From IMG/VR virus record IMGVR_UViG_2645727970_000008: a stretch of 15,836 nucleotides of DNA. One strand, written 5' to 3'. The position numbers were made by a program, and so were the translations under genes. The number at the start of each line of letters is the position of its first letter. The first letter of the stretch is position 1. Shown here piece by piece: positions 3,807-8,594 of the stretch. The notes below the pieces were generated by a model. The model saw only the letters and a list, made by a program, of their open reading frames with translations. It had not been told where the DNA came from and searched no databases. Origin of the DNA: a virus. Taxonomy: Duplodnaviria > Heunggongvirae > Uroviricota > Caudoviricetes.

Positions 3807-4244
3807 TCATCGAAGGCATTGCGTCCTAATGTACTCCTGCAAGTAGTTAACCTGCGCGGTTATCCTGTCGATTCCACTTCGGAGACGGTAATAATTGAGT
3901 TCAGCATCTGCTGTAAGTCCTGGGGTTTCTCCATTGCCCATGCCGCTGGCTCCGGTCGTTGACTTTGCACAGGTGGCGGCGACTTGCAGGCGCTTACGCC
4001 CAGCAGAAACATCAGCACGGAGACTTTCGATAGTCGCATTAGCATCAGCAAGCTCCTTTGTGTATCTGGCGTCAAGTTCTGCTACATCACGTTGCCGCTT
4101 CTGCATATCAGCGATGATGGATGTGGCTTTATCGCGCTGCTCTTTGTAGGCGATGGCGTTATCACGGTAATGATTAACAGCCCATGAAAGGCAGACGATG
4201 AGGCAGATGACCAGAACGTAGATAATCGCGGTTACTCTGCTCAT
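3807..4244 (-). CDS. Rz: Rz i-spanin (inner-membrane spanin subunit)
   Basis: From the ATG at 4244 ([31 protein letters not shown]...), near-identical at the N-terminus to lambda Rz as recalled. ATGA overlap with the endolysin stop. The track ORF begins at an upstream GTG (4256). Confidence 0.9.
3860..4045 (-). CDS. Rz1: Rz1 o-spanin, embedded in the +1 frame of Rz (lipoprotein, proline-rich mature part)
   Basis: Embedded ORF with signal peptide and lipobox ([20 protein letters not shown]) followed by [16 protein letters not shown]. Exact start Met is uncertain (track ORF starts at 4075). Confidence 0.75.
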
Positions 4245-4738
4245 TGTTGCCCCCACAAACAGACTTCACGCTCAATCTCACGGCGAGTCATCAGCCCTTT
4301 CCATTGCTTACCGCCAGCGTATGTCCAGCGCCGTAGCTGATCACATGCGCCTTTGATATCGCCCTGGTTTATTTTGCGAAGAAGCGTCGATGTTCTGAAA
4401 TTGCCAGCGCCCACGTTGTAAACGAACGAGTAAAGAGCGCCGCGCGTTGTTTCCGGTATATCGACGTTGATGTACGGGTTAATTTGTCTGGCGACCGTGG
4501 CAAGGTCTTTATTCAGGAGGGCTTTGCATTCTGCTTCGGTATACGTTTTACCGGGCATGATGTCTTTTCCGGTGTGTCCGTGACATACAGTCCATACGCC
4601 AACGATATCTTCGTATGGTATGTAGCTGACACCTTCCAGGCCATCGTCACCACTCGGACCAGTGATGAGCACAGACGCTATGGCAACAGCCCCACCACCA
4701 ATAGCAGCAGCAACGGCTTTTCGTAATGATGGAGGCAT
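4241..4738 (-). CDS. R: SAR endolysin (phage 21 R-type lysozyme)
   Basis: 165 aa. N-terminal Gly/Ala-rich SAR segment [27 protein letters not shown], then a lysozyme core ([19 protein letters not shown]...). Start ATG overlaps the holin stop (TAATG). Confidence 0.95.
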
Positions 4739-4944
4739 TATTCACCTCTCGCAGCCTTGCGCTTATCTTCTTTAATCTTGAAATAAAGGTTTGTCAGATA
4801 CGTCAGCAGGCCAAACAGCAGACTCCCCAGCACACCTATTGCCACCCACTGGGACGGAGAGACTTTGTCCAGCAGCTGCAGTAAACAGTATCCCGTCCCC
4901 ACCGCTGACGTGGTGTATGACACACCTGTTGTGATTTTTTCCAT
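4738..4944 (-). CDS. S: Pinholin (S21-type class II holin)
   Basis: 68 aa, [10 protein letters not shown]...[40 protein letters not shown], resembling S21-68 as recalled. GGAGA Shine-Dalgarno. Located immediately upstream of the SAR endolysin. Confidence 0.9.
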
Positions 4945-5237: not shown

Positions 5238-7103
5238 TTATGCTGCCGGTGCATTTATCTCCAGCACCAGACTTTCTATCTCAACGCCATACGCTGCATT
5301 TTTTGTAACATCCGTCAGCGTCAGCGCATTCAGTCCCAGTGTCAGACCGTCTTTTATAACCTGGAATGCCGGGCCAGCCACTCCATTCAGTTTCGGAGTA
5401 ACCGTGGCACTGCCGGCGGTGAACACCAGCTCCAGCGTCTGCCAGTCGTTACCGTAACCGCCGAACTCCCCCAGCTTCGTGTTTCCGGCTTTCCTGTGAT
5501 GCATCAGATTCACTCTGCCGTCAGTGGTCTGAGTGAAGTAAGACATCAGGAACGGATTACCAGTACCCGTCATCGCCACATCATCAGGAACGGGAGCGTC
5601 CGTATACAGATAAATCCCCAGCCCGAACTGATTGTTGGTCAGTGCGCCTGAGAGGCGGAACTTACAGGTCAGTCTGCCGCCCTGTGTCAGCAGGGTAATT
5701 GCGTCATCCACCGGATGCATCAGGGACCAGGTTTTATTGCTCTGCTTGGTGATCTTAAATACACCATCTGACAACTGAATTCCGCCATTCTTAATGCTCC
5801 AGCCCTGCGCAGCAGCATCTCCGGCTGTCGGCAACAGGGAGATTGTGCGTACGGATGCATCTTCAGACGGCCCCGATGGCGTGTCGCCGCCGGGCGAGGG
5901 TTTGATTTCCGGTGCCTTACCACTAATGAAGGCTAAGGTGCGACCGGCTACGTTCAGAATAGCAGTTGCCATACGATCGGGAATAATGCCACGACGCGCC
6001 CATGAGCTGAAATGCGTCGGGCGATTTGATGATACCCAGTTTTTGTTCGTTCGGGATGCCGAACCGTAATAACCAGACCCGGCAATATCAGGATCTTCTG
6101 ACGGGTTGTTTGTCGGTGTATTAACTCCGCTACCATCGGTCATAAAGGGAACAAAATAAATCTGCTGGGATTCTTTACCTTTATATGCACCATATACCAC
6201 TTCATATTGCGTACCGTGTTCTTGTTTCCACGCGTATGTCGTGTCGCCACAAATCCAGGGGACTGATGCCGGACTTCCACCGTGACACTGCGCCGCCAGC
6301 CCGGCAAAGTCAGCACGGAACTGCTGTACCATTGCAAGAAATGCTGCTGGCTGCTGGGCGTAACTGGCATTCGTCATATCGAATTCCCCCTGCATCCAGC
6401 ATATCGCCAGCAAAACGTTTTTCGGGTTTTTCTGCAATGCTGCCTTCGTGCGGAAAAGCAGATCCTGATATAACGGCTTACCCACTCCCCAGCGAGCCGA
6501 ATCCTGACTGGCCCCCGTGGACTCGCTGAATGTCCCCTCCGTGCCCTGGGTGAATGCCGAACCACCACGACAGCATGGTACCAGCAGGATCCCCGCGTTA
6601 TTCGGGATATACGGAAGCAGTTTTTTGGCAATATGTAAGCCCTGGCCGACACAGCCGTACTGCCCTTTGCTCAGGTCTGCCTTCGGATGATTCAGCGTAC
6701 TCATATCCTGCACATCATGCAGGCAGTGGTCGGCCGGAATAATATCGTTATATCTGCAGGCAGCCCCACCCGGCGTCACTGTACTGCGGCGCGCCAGCTG
6801 TTTAATGCGCGGATCCGGAGCATCGTATGAATCCGGCAGCGGAAGCCCTTCACCGTAAGCCATGGCATTGGACTGCCCGGCCAGTACGATGACGTAGTAC
6901 CAATCCGGCTCAGTTGCACCACTGACCACCACATCACCTTCTGCTGTAATCGCCTGCATCAGAGTATAAGGGGTTATGGCCACCGGACTACCAAACGGCT
7001 GCCAGCCCTCTTTCAGTTTATGTGTCAGCTTTTCCGCAAGATCTGACGGCGACGCCGCCCTGACAACATCATAGTGTTTAAATGCCATGGTTCTTTCCAC
7101 CAT
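5238..7103 (-). CDS. nanS-p: NanS-p-type sialate O-acetylesterase (DUF1737 N-terminus, SGNH/SASA esterase core, C-terminal lectin-like domain)
   Basis: 621 aa ORF with esterase motif VLAGQSNA and the N-terminal MAFKHYDVVRAASPSDLAEKLTHKL segment typical of the family found downstream of stx in Stx phages. The second Met at 7088 has the better Shine-Dalgarno, so the true start may be 7088. Confidence 0.85.
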   Translation of the reverse strand: MVERTMAFKHYDVVRAASPSDLAEKLTHKLKEGWQPFGSPVAITPYTLMQAITAEGDVVVSGATEPDWYYVIVLAGQSNAMAYGEGLPLPDSYDAPDPRIKQLARRSTVTPGGAACRYNDIIPADHCLHDVQDMSTLNHPKADLSKGQYGCVGQGLHIAKKLLPYIPNNAGILLVPCCRGGSAFTQGTEGTFSESTGASQDSARWGVGKPLYQDLLFRTKAALQKNPKNVLLAICWMQGEFDMTNASYAQQPAAFLAMVQQFRADFAGLAAQCHGGSPASVPWICGDTTYAWKQEHGTQYEVVYGAYKGKESQQIYFVPFMTDGSGVNTPTNNPSEDPDIAGSGYYGSASRTNKNWVSSNRPTHFSSWARRGIIPDRMATAILNVAGRTLAFISGKAPEIKPSPGGDTPSGPSEDASVRTISLLPTAGDAAAQGWSIKNGGIQLSDGVFKITKQSNKTWSLMHPVDDAITLLTQGGRLTCKFRLSGALTNNQFGLGIYLYTDAPVPDDVAMTGTGNPFLMSYFTQTTDGRVNLMHHRKAGNTKLGEFGGYGNDWQTLELVFTAGSATVTPKLNGVAGPAFQVIKDGLTLGLNALTLTDVTKNAAYGVEIESLVLEINAPAA

Positions 7104-7347
7104 CTGAAAAATAATTCTTTAAAATACCTGACATGTAATACAGAAAAAACACAAAACCATACCTTAAATAAAAACCTGATTATCAAGCAGATATGCATGG
7201 ATAAACTACAAGACGAGATATAAACCACCCTGTATTTAAATAAACAATAAACAACATCAGAAAAATAATTCTGCTCTATGGTTTAATTCAAAAATATCAT
7301 TTATACTTTTCAGAACATCACCAGCAAGGCATAAACAAGGAAAGTAA

Positions 7348-7683
7348 ATGAAGTGGATTGTGATTGATACAGTTATCCAGCCATCATGCGGAATATCTTT
7401 TTCAGTCATATGGAGTAAAATAAAATTAATAATCTGGTATCAATCGGATGCTTTCTTACCTCCTGAAAGTATATTTACACTGACTCACACAGGCATCATG
7501 CTCAATAACAAAGTGCTACCTGTAACCATTTACAACGTAGTACCATTCAATAAAACATTCTGGAATTTAATCAAAAACAGCCAGGAATGCCCTACAAATA
7601 CAGATAACGTATTGAATGAATGCTTTAATAACCGTTGCACTCTGCAAATATGTCCTTATGGACTAAAACAACAAAGTCCATAA
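7348..7683 (+). CDS. Hypothetical protein, 111 aa, AT-rich, Cys-rich C-terminus; opposite strand to the late operon
   Basis: ATG with AAGGAAAG Shine-Dalgarno at 6-nt spacing. Low-GC, Ile/Asn-rich composition. C-terminal motif C-x10-C-x4-C-x4-C. TATACT -10-like hexamer about 40 nt upstream. Confidence 0.5.
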
Positions 7684-7714
7684 GGAGTTTACTCACATCT
7701 GACAAAATCAATAT

Positions 7715-7745
7715 AAACAGCCCCTCCGGAGAGGGGCTGGAGAGT
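7715..7745 (-). terminator. Rho-independent terminator oriented for the minus strand (perfect hairpin CAGCCCCTC-CGGA-GAGGGGCTG)
   Basis: Perfect 9-bp inverted repeat; the minus-strand reading is followed by TTTATATTGATTTTGT. Confidence 0.65.
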
Positions 7746-7963
7746 GGCGCTATGTGCCATTGCATGGTGCCGGGTGCCTCCCGGTGAATTCAGTACCAGC
7801 ACCTGAATCCGCGATTATCCCATATACCTACTCGCTGATTGCCCCTCCGCACAGGGGGATTCACCATGCCAGTTTCTTTTAACAAACTCCCCGCAAACCA
7901 GACAACAGTCAACCGCCTGAATTGTGAAGTATTTAAAAATTTCTCCCGCTAACTGATACCCGG

Positions 7964-8050
7964 CTAACAGTCTGGCGTTTTCTTTTTCAGCAACGGGAAA
8001 GCAACAACCACCACACCCGCCACCAGCACACCGTCAGCCAGCACTGACAT
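7964..8050 (-). CDS. Possible 28-aa hydrophobic peptide (MSVLADGVLVAGVVVVAFPLLKKKTPDC)
   Basis: Short ATG ORF with a single hydrophobic helix and a KKK tail. Weak, poorly spaced Shine-Dalgarno. Below the track size cutoff. Confidence 0.15.
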   Translation of the reverse strand: MSVLADGVLVAGVVVVAFPLLKKKTPDC

Positions 8051-8130
8051 TATCCGGCTGCTGCAATGCCATTCACAAAAACAGTAAGCAATCACTTTTT
8101 ACCGTAACAGGTGATAATCCAGATATGTAT

Positions 8131-8457
8131 CTACCCCAGATGAGTAATCCGAAGTTCATCCATACCACAGGTCCTGGCTATTCTGTTGTACTCCTGAACA
8201 AGAGCAAATAATTCTGAATTAGCAACCATGAACTCATCGCAAACCCTCTGTATAGCATCACTATTCAGAATAATAACGTCTCTTCCCAAAAGACGATCAG
8301 GAGTACAGAACAAAACTGTCAAACGGCTGAAGGCCTTTGCTCGTGCTGCATTGACTATATCAATACGCTGCCTAAGGATGAAACACCCCGACGCCTCATC
8401 AATATTCACTCTACCCACACCATATGAATGATAAATATTTAATACTGAAAAAATCAT
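8131..8457 (-). CDS. Hypothetical protein at the stx-equivalent position (108 aa from ATG 8457; track ORF starts at a TTG at 8484)
   Basis: Uninterrupted minus-frame ORF directly downstream of the tRNA cluster, low-GC composition, no recognisable family motif. Shine-Dalgarno is weak for both possible starts. Confidence 0.45.
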   Translation of the reverse strand: MIFSVLNIYHSYGVGRVNIDEASGCFILRQRIDIVNAARAKAFSRLTVLFCTPDRLLGRDVIILNSDAIQRVCDEFMVANSELFALVQEYNRIARTCGMDELRITHLG

Positions 8458-8594
8458 TAGACCGTATAACAAACACTCAATCAATACTTAACAGAACTTT
8501 TATTTTTGACAAACATATAATATTTTCAACAATATACTGAGCCAGGTATATTCCAGTATAAGGCTCTGCCGGAAGAAATCTGGAAGAATGAATA

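Follow-up and report, generated by a model that had tools for sequence, protein, structure and literature searches.

What does a lambdoid prophage carry at the place where Shiga toxin phages carry stx, when it has no toxin genes? The question is raised by a 15,836-nucleotide stretch of DNA (referred to here as the window) from a virus of the Caudoviricetes. An earlier note on this DNA, made by reading the sequence, took its late region to be that of an Stx phage in which AT-rich cargo of unknown function replaces Shiga toxin, and suggested that this cargo is transcribed late under Q and released at lysis. We find that the largest gene concerned is a known regulator with a predicted promoter of its own, and that two small genes beside it are the part that merits further attention.

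The slot and its neighbours

The late gene order claimed on the minus strand is borne out, as Q-like gene, methyltransferase, tRNAs, a slot of 1.5 kb, nanS-p-type esterase, holin, lysozyme and Rz, and the ORFs named earlier are all present where they were placed. The features are as follows.

10523-11077, minus strand: DUF1133/antitermination-Q-like gene
10107 to 10090, minus strand: terminator-like site
8894-9943, minus strand: N6/N4 DNA methylase
8769-8844, minus strand: tRNA with CAT anticodon (ileZ-type), left flank of the slot (Rfam, 72.5 bits)
8688-8761, minus strand: decayed middle tRNA, an argN-like remnant (Rfam tRNA model, 22.2 bits, sub-threshold, E = 0.13)
8595-8671, minus strand: tRNA-Arg (TCT), immediate left boundary of the slot (tRNA scan and Rfam)
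7104-8594 (1491 bp): the slot, between tRNA-Arg and the nanS-p-type esterase
8410-8594, minus strand: AT-rich spacer upstream of the phrog_2873 gene, holding a non-conserved N-terminal ORF extension
8131-8409, minus strand: 92-aa protein of PHROG family 2873, conserved start GTG 8409 (given earlier as an ORF of 108-117 aa at 8131-8484)
7964-8095, minus strand: DUF3927 small hydrophobic protein, 43 aa from GTG 8095 (PF13064, 95.6 bits, cutoff 25)
7709-7898, minus strand: STnc100-family prophage sRNA (Rfam RF02076, 132.4 bits against a gathering score of 47, full-length to model positions 1-206)
7348-7683, plus strand, convergent with the late operon: iraL, encoding an RssB anti-adaptor of 111 aa, a paralogue of IraM
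7104-7347, plus strand: iraL promoter and 5' UTR (transcription start 7315, -10 TATACT 7302-7307, Shine-Dalgarno AAGGAAA 7338-7344)
5238-7103, minus strand: nanS-p-type esterase (DUF1737, SASA and DUF6645, by Pfam), right boundary of the slot
4738-4944, minus strand: P21-type holin
4241-4738, minus strand: lysozyme
3807-4256, minus strand: Rz

The CAT tRNA, labelled Met by ARAGORN and, for the identical gene, Ile by PGAP, has no differences from the copy in E. coli CFT073. The 97 nt between the two flanking tRNAs (8672-8768) differ from CFT073 at 17 positions, mostly inside the stretch that aligns to a functional tRNA-Arg in CFT073.

The description of the slot as low in GC is right for the slot overall, at 39% against 47% for the window, but the AT-richness is confined to its two ends. 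The iraL upstream region (7104-7347) has 28% GC, iraL itself 34.5% and the spacer at 8410-8594 30%, with 55% for STnc100 and 51% for DUF3927. Of 5426 complete E. coli genomes, 863 have the full slot of 1491 bp at a coverage of at least 80%; judged by this recurrence it is not a chance feature.

The scaffold shared with Stx phages

The positional equivalence with stx proposed in the earlier note holds. As in the stxAB locus of Stx phages there are ileZ/arg tRNAs upstream, and STnc100, the nanS-p esterase, holin and lysozyme downstream. Shigella phage 75/02 has stx1AB between Q and STnc100, and the STnc100 flank is shared, window positions 7936-7761 corresponding to 4438-4609 of the phage locus at 86% identity, as are nanS-p and holin. 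In phage PPwrbA_EH2201 the scaffold is empty, running from the tRNAs to STnc100 to nanS-p, and in two STEC prophages the same scaffold carries TolA-like and AraC-like genes. The comparison across prophages that had been proposed thus finds the locus alternating with stx, AraC-like, TolA-like and empty states, and the slot is therefore to be seen as a hypervariable moron site.

The window differs from the stxAB locus in being free of toxin, with two uncharacterised small genes and a reverse-oriented regulator instead. With regard to Stx itself, the statement that none is present was correct: tblastn of Stx1A and Stx1B against the window gave a best E of 1.9 for a 10-residue match, and no RIP or SLT_beta Pfam domain was found on any slot ORF. 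A further difference from phage 75/02 is that there the anti-sRNA AgvB lies reverse-oriented in the gap between STnc100 and nanS-p, where the window has iraL.

In our view a lambdoid E. coli prophage very probably has a composite moron region here, with tRNAs, STnc100 sRNA and nanS-p as the scaffold and with iraL and two minus-strand genes as the cargo. It may be regarded as two sub-slots. Sub-slot A would run from tRNA-Arg to STnc100, the exact place of stxAB, with the phrog_2873 and DUF3927 genes in the direction of the late operon and STnc100 as its closing element, and sub-slot B would run from STnc100 to nanS-p, with iraL on the opposite strand. From the position of the phrog_2873 and DUF3927 genes, Q-modified RNA polymerase would be expected to transcribe both on induction.

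The STnc100 RNA

The terminator reported earlier at 7715-7745 is real, a terminator scan giving a minus-strand hairpin with T-tail from 7739 to 7718, and it is the 3' end of the STnc100 sRNA. The copy here is identical to that of CFT073; its single-sequence fold has a z-score of -1.37. The family also lies directly after stxB in phage 75/02 and, likewise, in Stx2 phages (PMC12370729, PMC12711010). The arrangement resembles that described for the STnc100 / EcOnc27 (sRNA103) / PasD family, directly upstream of nanS-p and downstream of cargo, as after stx1B and stx2B (PMC12370729, PMC12711010, bioRxiv 10.64898/2026.05.13.724894), and the Stx2-phage homologue EcOnc27/sRNA103 is reported to be a discrete Hfq-associated RNA (PMC12711010). 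The Stx1-phage copy differs in that the final 50 nt or so, including the terminator, diverge, the BLAST alignment stopping at 7761. The position of the intrinsic terminator suggests that it would halt non-antiterminated minus-strand transcription before this entered iraL in the antisense direction. PGAP annotates a "hypothetical protein" pseudogene at 7754-7879 on the plus strand, which is antisense to STnc100 and is probably an annotation artefact.

The plus-strand gene iraL

Homology search, which the earlier note had recommended for both of the larger slot ORFs, identified the 111-aa ORF as IraL and the minus-strand ORF as phrog_2873. In the case of iraL the identification is with a protein of established function. 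The gene is identical to c1429 of CFT073 (WP_000871291.1) over all 111 residues and all 336 nucleotides, and for IraL of CFT073, a uropathogenic strain, experiments have demonstrated RssB binding and, in log phase, stabilisation of RpoS (Hryckowian et al., mBio 2014, PMC4045071). The protein matches NCBIfam NF007393 (IraM) with 162 bits, where the cutoff is 121, over residues 1-110 of 111, and has 62% identity to K-12 IraM (b1160) over 107 aa. Its PDB match is 8TWD (E = 9e-32), from which the structure and mechanism of IraM-RssB are known (PMC10844676). The residues of IraM that contact RssB are T13, C14, F18, W30, I61, Y62, H63, I64 and L75 (PMC10844676), and their counterparts in our alignment are S13, C14, F18, W30, I61, Y62, N63, V64 and I75, with five of the nine identical and the other four conservative replacements. 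K-12 IraM also resembles IraL in adjoining prophage DNA (e14). However, IraM, which is induced by low Mg2+, is a paralogue and not an orthologue, with other genomic context and regulation; IraL works in unstressed log phase, and its interaction with RssB differs (PMC4045071). On the identity to the CFT073 protein, we conclude that the plus-strand ORF is IraL, an anti-adaptor already characterised, and RssB binding and a longer RpoS half-life would be expected in this host also. The gene is present, and annotated everywhere, in 1446 of the 5426 genomes. An inverted repeat of 11 bp (7654-7664/7675-7685), noticed on reading the sequence, spans its stop codon.

The CFT073 locus has the same neighbours and prophage position, with tRNAs, an unannotated ORF, DUF3927, STnc100, iraL and the nanS-p side; the full order in its potB prophage is Q, tRNAs, the ORF, DUF3927, STnc100, iraL, a nanS-p remnant and holin. 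The window differs in having a full-length nanS-p (621 aa) where CFT073 has a truncated DUF1737 remnant, and in the decay of the middle tRNA.

The start of the iraL mRNA was mapped by 5'RACE in CFT073 (PMC4045071), and the published 5'RACE sequence matches the window at 7315-7346 with 2 mismatches, where 0 matches are expected by chance, so the mapped 5' UTR is conserved. There are six changes from CFT073 within the 244 bp of promoter and 5' UTR, one of them a deletion of 1 nt in the -35 region. In the promoter alignment the sequence at the transcription start and the -10 TATACT are kept, the stretch that forms TTTACA ahead of the -10 has lost this one base, and a G to A change lies beside the iraL start site. 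A PhoP box was looked for by eye upstream of iraL, and we found just GTTTA repeats with the wrong spacing.

The proposal of Q-dependent late transcription and release at lysis is not supported for iraL, which is on the opposite strand and has its own promoter, mapped in CFT073. Its orientation against the late operon and this predicted promoter argue that it is a lysogenic-conversion gene and not lysis-released cargo. By analogy with CFT073, a putative sigma-70 promoter with the start mapped in that strain would drive iraL in the lysogen, IraL would bind the adaptor RssB and so block delivery of RpoS to ClpXP by RssB, and RpoS would be stabilised and the general stress response raised, an effect demonstrated for the identical CFT073 protein. 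On the same analogy we conclude that iraL is a gene working inside the host, neither a toxin nor lysis-released.

The minus-strand gene of PHROG family 2873

For the minus-strand ORF there is first the question of whether it is a gene at all, as decaying spacer DNA would account for the missing annotation. In the RefSeq loci inspected, namely three annotation tables and 11 full-length matches sampled from 1185 genomes, no annotated gene lies under the 92-aa ORF; the Shine-Dalgarno sequence before GTG 8409 in E. coli is weak (GGGT), and neither Pfam, NCBIfam nor PADLOC gave a family match for the 117-aa or 92-aa form. However, the protein matches phrog_2873 with E = 5.7e-57, residues 1-92 aligning to profile positions 17-108 of 108, and frame and length are held in four lineages at 39-62% amino acid identity, homologues being 91-95 aa long. 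The dN/dS for this frame is 0.25-0.34, whereas the two remaining frames of that strand give 0.8-1.2; the frame on the complementary strand that shares third codon positions is also low, at 0.31, as expected. Intact forms predominate in the protein clusters (253, 175, 146 and 370 members), and AlphaFold2 gives an antiparallel two-helix hairpin with a pLDDT of 88.6, from only 9 sequences. The spacer reading is very unlikely and can be taken as largely refuted already, and these comparisons indicate that phrog_2873 is a real gene under purifying selection. The ORF is found in 1185 of the 5426 complete E. coli genomes, or about 22%.

The start is conserved as GTG or ATG, and the homologue on a metagenomic contig has an AGGAG Shine-Dalgarno sequence. 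This and the distant homologues favour GTG 8409 over TTG 8484 and ATG 8457, which we rejected as the conserved start; in the AlphaFold2 model of the long form residues 1-23 have pLDDT below 50. A sigma-70-like match in the upstream spacer (TTGAAA-16-AAAAAT, 8529 to 8502) belongs to a class of promoter-like matches that are no commoner than in shuffled sequence.

A tblastn search of INPHARED phages with the 92-aa protein matched a single phage, mEp460_ev081, and a locus scan among species representatives gave only three loci, in E. coli, Citrobacter braakii and one MAG. Searching PDB sequences with a profile of the family gave only noise (best E = 0.06), and fold searches gave generic helical hairpins only.

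DUF3927 and the role of the minus-strand pair

The possible 28-aa hydrophobic peptide of the earlier note (7964-8050) is the conserved core of the DUF3927 protein, for which PGAP annotates both 43-aa and 28-aa forms. Compared with 50-aa homologues, the E. coli protein conserves only the second (C-terminal) hydrophobic segment, and the first is missing. DUF3927 is a real gene under purifying selection.

The phrase "cargo of unknown function" does not stand for most of the slot, with IraL characterised, the terminator part of STnc100 and the 28-aa peptide a Pfam DUF3927 protein, but it stands for the function of the phrog_2873 and DUF3927 genes. That the slot holds toxin-like or virulence cargo, expressed late under Q and released at lysis like Stx, has in its favour the position, which is that of stx, and the presence there of two uncharacterised genes that run in the direction of the late operon and show purifying selection. 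Against this, IraL exceeds the other slot genes in size and conservation, and it is a cytoplasmic regulator encoded on the opposite strand; the 92-aa protein (MNIDEASG...) lacks a hydrophobic N-terminus and is a plain two-helix hairpin that matched no toxin or defence family; the DUF3927 peptide, at about 28-43 aa, has a single hydrophobic segment; and no similarity to Stx, RIP or AB5 proteins was seen. PADLOC defence models likewise gave no match to the 92-aa protein, DUF3927 or IraL. We regard this reading as most improbable.

A second proposal is that the pair forms a lysis-accessory or host-takeover module, acting for example in lysis timing or holin modulation, with iraL merely a neighbouring moron. 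DUF3927 is a small membrane peptide, and in a Citrobacter braakii prophage and the metagenomic contig phrog_2873 is followed by a TerB-like gene and DUF3927 and, directly after these, by a Phage_holin_8 holin and an endolysin. However, this rests on synteny in three lineages, and an STEC variant (L006/L008) has a phrog_2873 homologue beside an AraC-like regulator without DUF3927. In the window STnc100, iraL and nanS-p lie between the pair and the holin, and of the hydrophobic segments in the 50-aa form the E. coli DUF3927 is without the first. A specific lysis or takeover role is thus unlikely, and only a little less doubtful is the broader suggestion, which we put forward tentatively, that phrog_2873 and DUF3927 at the stxAB place make up an accessory module, conserved but uncharacterised, in the late operon of enterobacterial lambdoid prophages, perhaps for lysis timing or host-protein binding.

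Discussion

Chiefly, the earlier reading of the cargo is corrected. The supposed mystery is iraL, a prophage-borne regulator already described in print, which raises RpoS levels and hence stress resistance and is found in roughly one in four sequenced E. coli. The cargo was thus already known for the most part, and the remaining interest is largely in the unannotated phrog_2873/DUF3927 pair. For annotation there is a gap to be filled, as the 92-aa gene is under purifying selection and carried by many complete E. coli genomes while being unannotated in the RefSeq loci inspected.

Besides this gap, what goes beyond the literature consulted is the location of iraL at the hypervariable late site that bears stx, in the reverse-oriented sub-slot that holds AgvB in phage 75/02. 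Both this and the annotation gap are modest, and would not surprise a specialist. With iraL at this site, an RpoS regulator joins sRNAs and toxins in a single system of exchangeable cassettes around the STnc100 repeat.

Content of the slot

The gene order of the late region of the window was read from an ORF listing, a tRNA search and Pfam scans.

Features of the late region and slot (coordinates, strand, feature, evidence)
3807-4256, minus, Rz
4241-4738, minus, lysozyme
4738-4944, minus, P21-type holin
5238-7103, minus, nanS-p-type esterase, DUF1737+SASA+DUF6645 (Pfam)
7104-8594, slot, 1491 bp
7348-7683, plus, 111-aa ORF assigned to iraL (NCBIfam, PDB, CFT073 identity)
7709-7898, minus, STnc100 sRNA (RF02076), full-length (Rfam, 132.4 bits, gathering score 47)
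7964-8095, minus, DUF3927 protein, 43 aa (Pfam, 95.6 bits)
8595-8671, minus, tRNA-Arg(TCT) (tRNA search)
8769-8844, minus, tRNA(CAT) (tRNA search)
8894-9943, minus, N6/N4 DNA methylase (ORF listing, Pfam)
10107->10090, minus, terminator-like hairpin
10523-11077, minus, DUF1133/antitermination-Q-like gene (ORF listing, Pfam)

The observation of the slot made in the earlier note is confirmed: all of its ORFs are in the ORF listing, its hairpin was detected at 7739->7718 with a T-tail, and tblastn of Stx1A and Stx1B against the window gave no match. The low GC reported holds for the two ends (28-35%) but not for the middle (44-55%). By megablast the slot is present at 80% coverage or more in 863 of 5426 complete E. 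coli genomes, where it is annotated as 'anti-adapter protein IraM | DUF3927 family protein | hypothetical protein'.

The two tRNA genes flank a decayed third tRNA (8688-8761, minus strand; Rfam tRNA 22.2 bits, E = 0.13, under the gathering score), which aligns with the functional middle tRNA-Arg of uropathogenic E. coli CFT073. The inter-tRNA interval (8672-8768, 97 nt) has 17 substitutions relative to CFT073, and the flanking tRNAs 0 and 2. Upstream of the Q region is a hok/sok (hokD-type) module with sok antitoxin RNA at 13090-13261 (minus strand; RF01794, 106.7 bits), and L001, one of the compared loci, has an annotated hokD at the corresponding position.

The plus-strand gene

On sequence grounds the plus-strand 111-aa ORF is identified as iraL. 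It scores 162 bits with the NCBIfam model for IraM, whose cutoff is 121, matches the IraM chain of PDB 8TWD with E = 9e-32, has a product 62% identical to K-12 IraM, and is the same as a gene of the CFT073 potB prophage over 111/111 aa and 336/336 nt, that gene being iraL (c1429) of Hryckowian et al. (mBio, PMC4045071), in whose work IraL bound RssB and, in log phase, stabilised RpoS. iraL alone is found in 1446 of the 5426 genomes and is annotated every time. Its expression is reported in later papers to be up in a fur mutant and after a shift to 37 C (PMC7157518, PMC12890032). The IraM-RssB crystal structure supplies the mechanism, and of the 9 RssB-contact residues listed there (PMC10844676), 5 are identical and 4 conservatively substituted in the aligned window IraL.

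In K-12 MG1655 (L005 3681-5108) iraM is just beyond the annotated e14 boundary. Next to it come the tiny genes ymgK and ymgL, then the DUF1398 gene ycgX, which has a paralogue, ydfO, in the annotation of the CFT073 prophage. These neighbours suggest that K-12 iraM is also within a prophage remnant.

The published iraL 5'RACE sequence (Hryckowian et al.) fits window 7315-7346 with 2 mismatches, where 0 such matches are expected by chance, and there is a -10 TATACT at 7302-7307 (plus strand). Relative to CFT073 the window has a G->A change beside the start site and a one-base deletion in the TTTACA stretch 5' of the -10, the base in question being a C at 7280-7290 (plus strand; CFT073 GGTTTACATTC, window GGTTTAATTC). 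L001 and L002, both compared loci, have the same variant, and a further locus, L004, has C->T at the position of the missing C. There are thus at least 3 alleles of the predicted -35 region in circulation, and expression of such variants is untested according to the mBio paper itself (PMC4045071).

STnc100 and the states of the slot

The "terminator" of the earlier note is the 3' end of STnc100 sRNA, of which the CFT073 copy is identical. In many genomes PGAP calls a 'hypothetical protein' pseudogene, partial, at 7754-7879 (plus strand; L001 8716-8841), antisense to STnc100; this call is probably an artefact that arises because the sRNA sequence is conserved.

Site states were compared by pairwise BLAST and Rfam scans, and the scaffold tRNAs - STnc100 - nanS-p is conserved in several states. 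It is empty in phage PPwrbA_EH2201 (tRNAs 4192-4438, STnc100 4545-4750, esterase from 4972). Shigella phage 75/02 has stx1AB 5' of STnc100, which lies directly 3' of stx1B (L011 4472-4670), and the anti-sRNA AgvB reverse-oriented 3' of it, in the same sub-slot and orientation as iraL in the window. This AgvB (RF02702, L011 4666-4725, minus strand), between STnc100 and nanS-p, scores 56.6 bits, just over the gathering score of 56. The window and CFT073 have phrog_2873 (the minus-strand ORF 8131-8484) and DUF3927 5' of STnc100 and iraL reverse-oriented 3' of it. The STEC1585 prophage (L008) has TolA-like and AraC-like genes and four STnc100 copies in a single late region (4575-4787, 6547-6742, 6806-7005, 7067-7256). 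The positional equivalence with stx proposed earlier is therefore correct, and the slot does alternate.

STnc100 has also been placed 75 nt downstream of stx2B, overlapping the Hfq-binding sRNA EcOnc27/sRNA103 (PMC12370729, PMC12711010), and a 2026 preprint relates it to PasD sRNAs and notes an association with esterase genes. In L008 the copies divide the TolA-like and AraC-like cassettes, and three of the four are near-tandem just 5' of nanS-p; the repeated unit resembles a recombination linker joining cassettes or morons.

The minus-strand genes

In L001, L002 and CFT073 the stretch 8131-8484 has no annotated CDS, and neither have 11 sampled full-length matches; these come from the 1185 genomes in which the ORF occurs at 95% identity or more. 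Protein searches gave about 950 predicted products that are nearly identical, together with homologues at 54% identity, and relatives of 91-95 aa were added by a profile search over 1.8 billion representatives. The window protein matches PHROG 2873 (E = 5.7e-57), as do all homologues, and PHROG 4827 more weakly, both of unknown function. In frame, dN/dS is 0.25-0.34; the other forward frames give 0.8-1.2. AlphaFold, with 9 sequences, confidently predicts an antiparallel two-helix hairpin (pLDDT 88.6). Sequence and model together show that this is a real gene, without RefSeq annotation in the loci inspected. The homologue starts align with GTG 8409, with an AGGAG SD in the metagenomic prophage L013, and the first 23 N-terminal residues of the long form are modelled at pLDDT < 50, so a length of 92 aa is most likely. 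Fold and family searches with this protein gave nothing informative on function.

PGAP annotates the DUF3927 ORF in a 43-aa or a 28-aa form. Alignment with 50-aa homologues shows conservation only in the C-terminal segment MSVLADGVLVA...PLLKK, which is the 28-aa peptide noted earlier; dN/dS is about 0.3.

In Citrobacter braakii and the metagenomic contig the order is phrog_2873, TerB-like gene, DUF3927, holin, endolysin. The TerB-like protein (141 aa; PF05099, E = 3.6e-7; L013 1499-1924 and, in the Citrobacter prophage, L014 4477-4902) is missing from the E. coli form, in which the phrog_2873-DUF3927 gap is only 35 bp. In the STEC prophages the phrog_2873 homologue comes after an AraC-like regulator, and DUF3927 is absent. 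This regulator (HTH_18, 241 aa; L006 164-889, L008 5164-5889) occupies the same slot directly 5' of the homologue and is itself preceded by a DNA methyltransferase fragment. Psr/PatE are published prophage AraC-like regulators.

Expected roles

The earlier interpretation, Q-dependent late cargo of unknown function, is partly supported. The content is mostly already known, being dominated by iraL, STnc100 and DUF3927, and late expression does not suit iraL, which is encoded opposite the late operon and appears to have its own promoter and to act inside the lysogen. IraL would bind RssB, RpoS would escape ClpXP and the stress regulon would go up; iraL would be a classic lysogenic-conversion moron active in the lysogen cytoplasm. 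On induction Q-modified polymerase would run antisense through iraL, and without induction iraL should be shielded by the STnc100 terminator. The two minus-strand genes, phrog_2873 and DUF3927, are plausibly late-expressed, and searches of the window gave no hint of a toxin for either. What remains novel is the 92-aa gene, without RefSeq annotation in the inspected loci, together with DUF3927, which often accompanies it, at exactly the position of stx.
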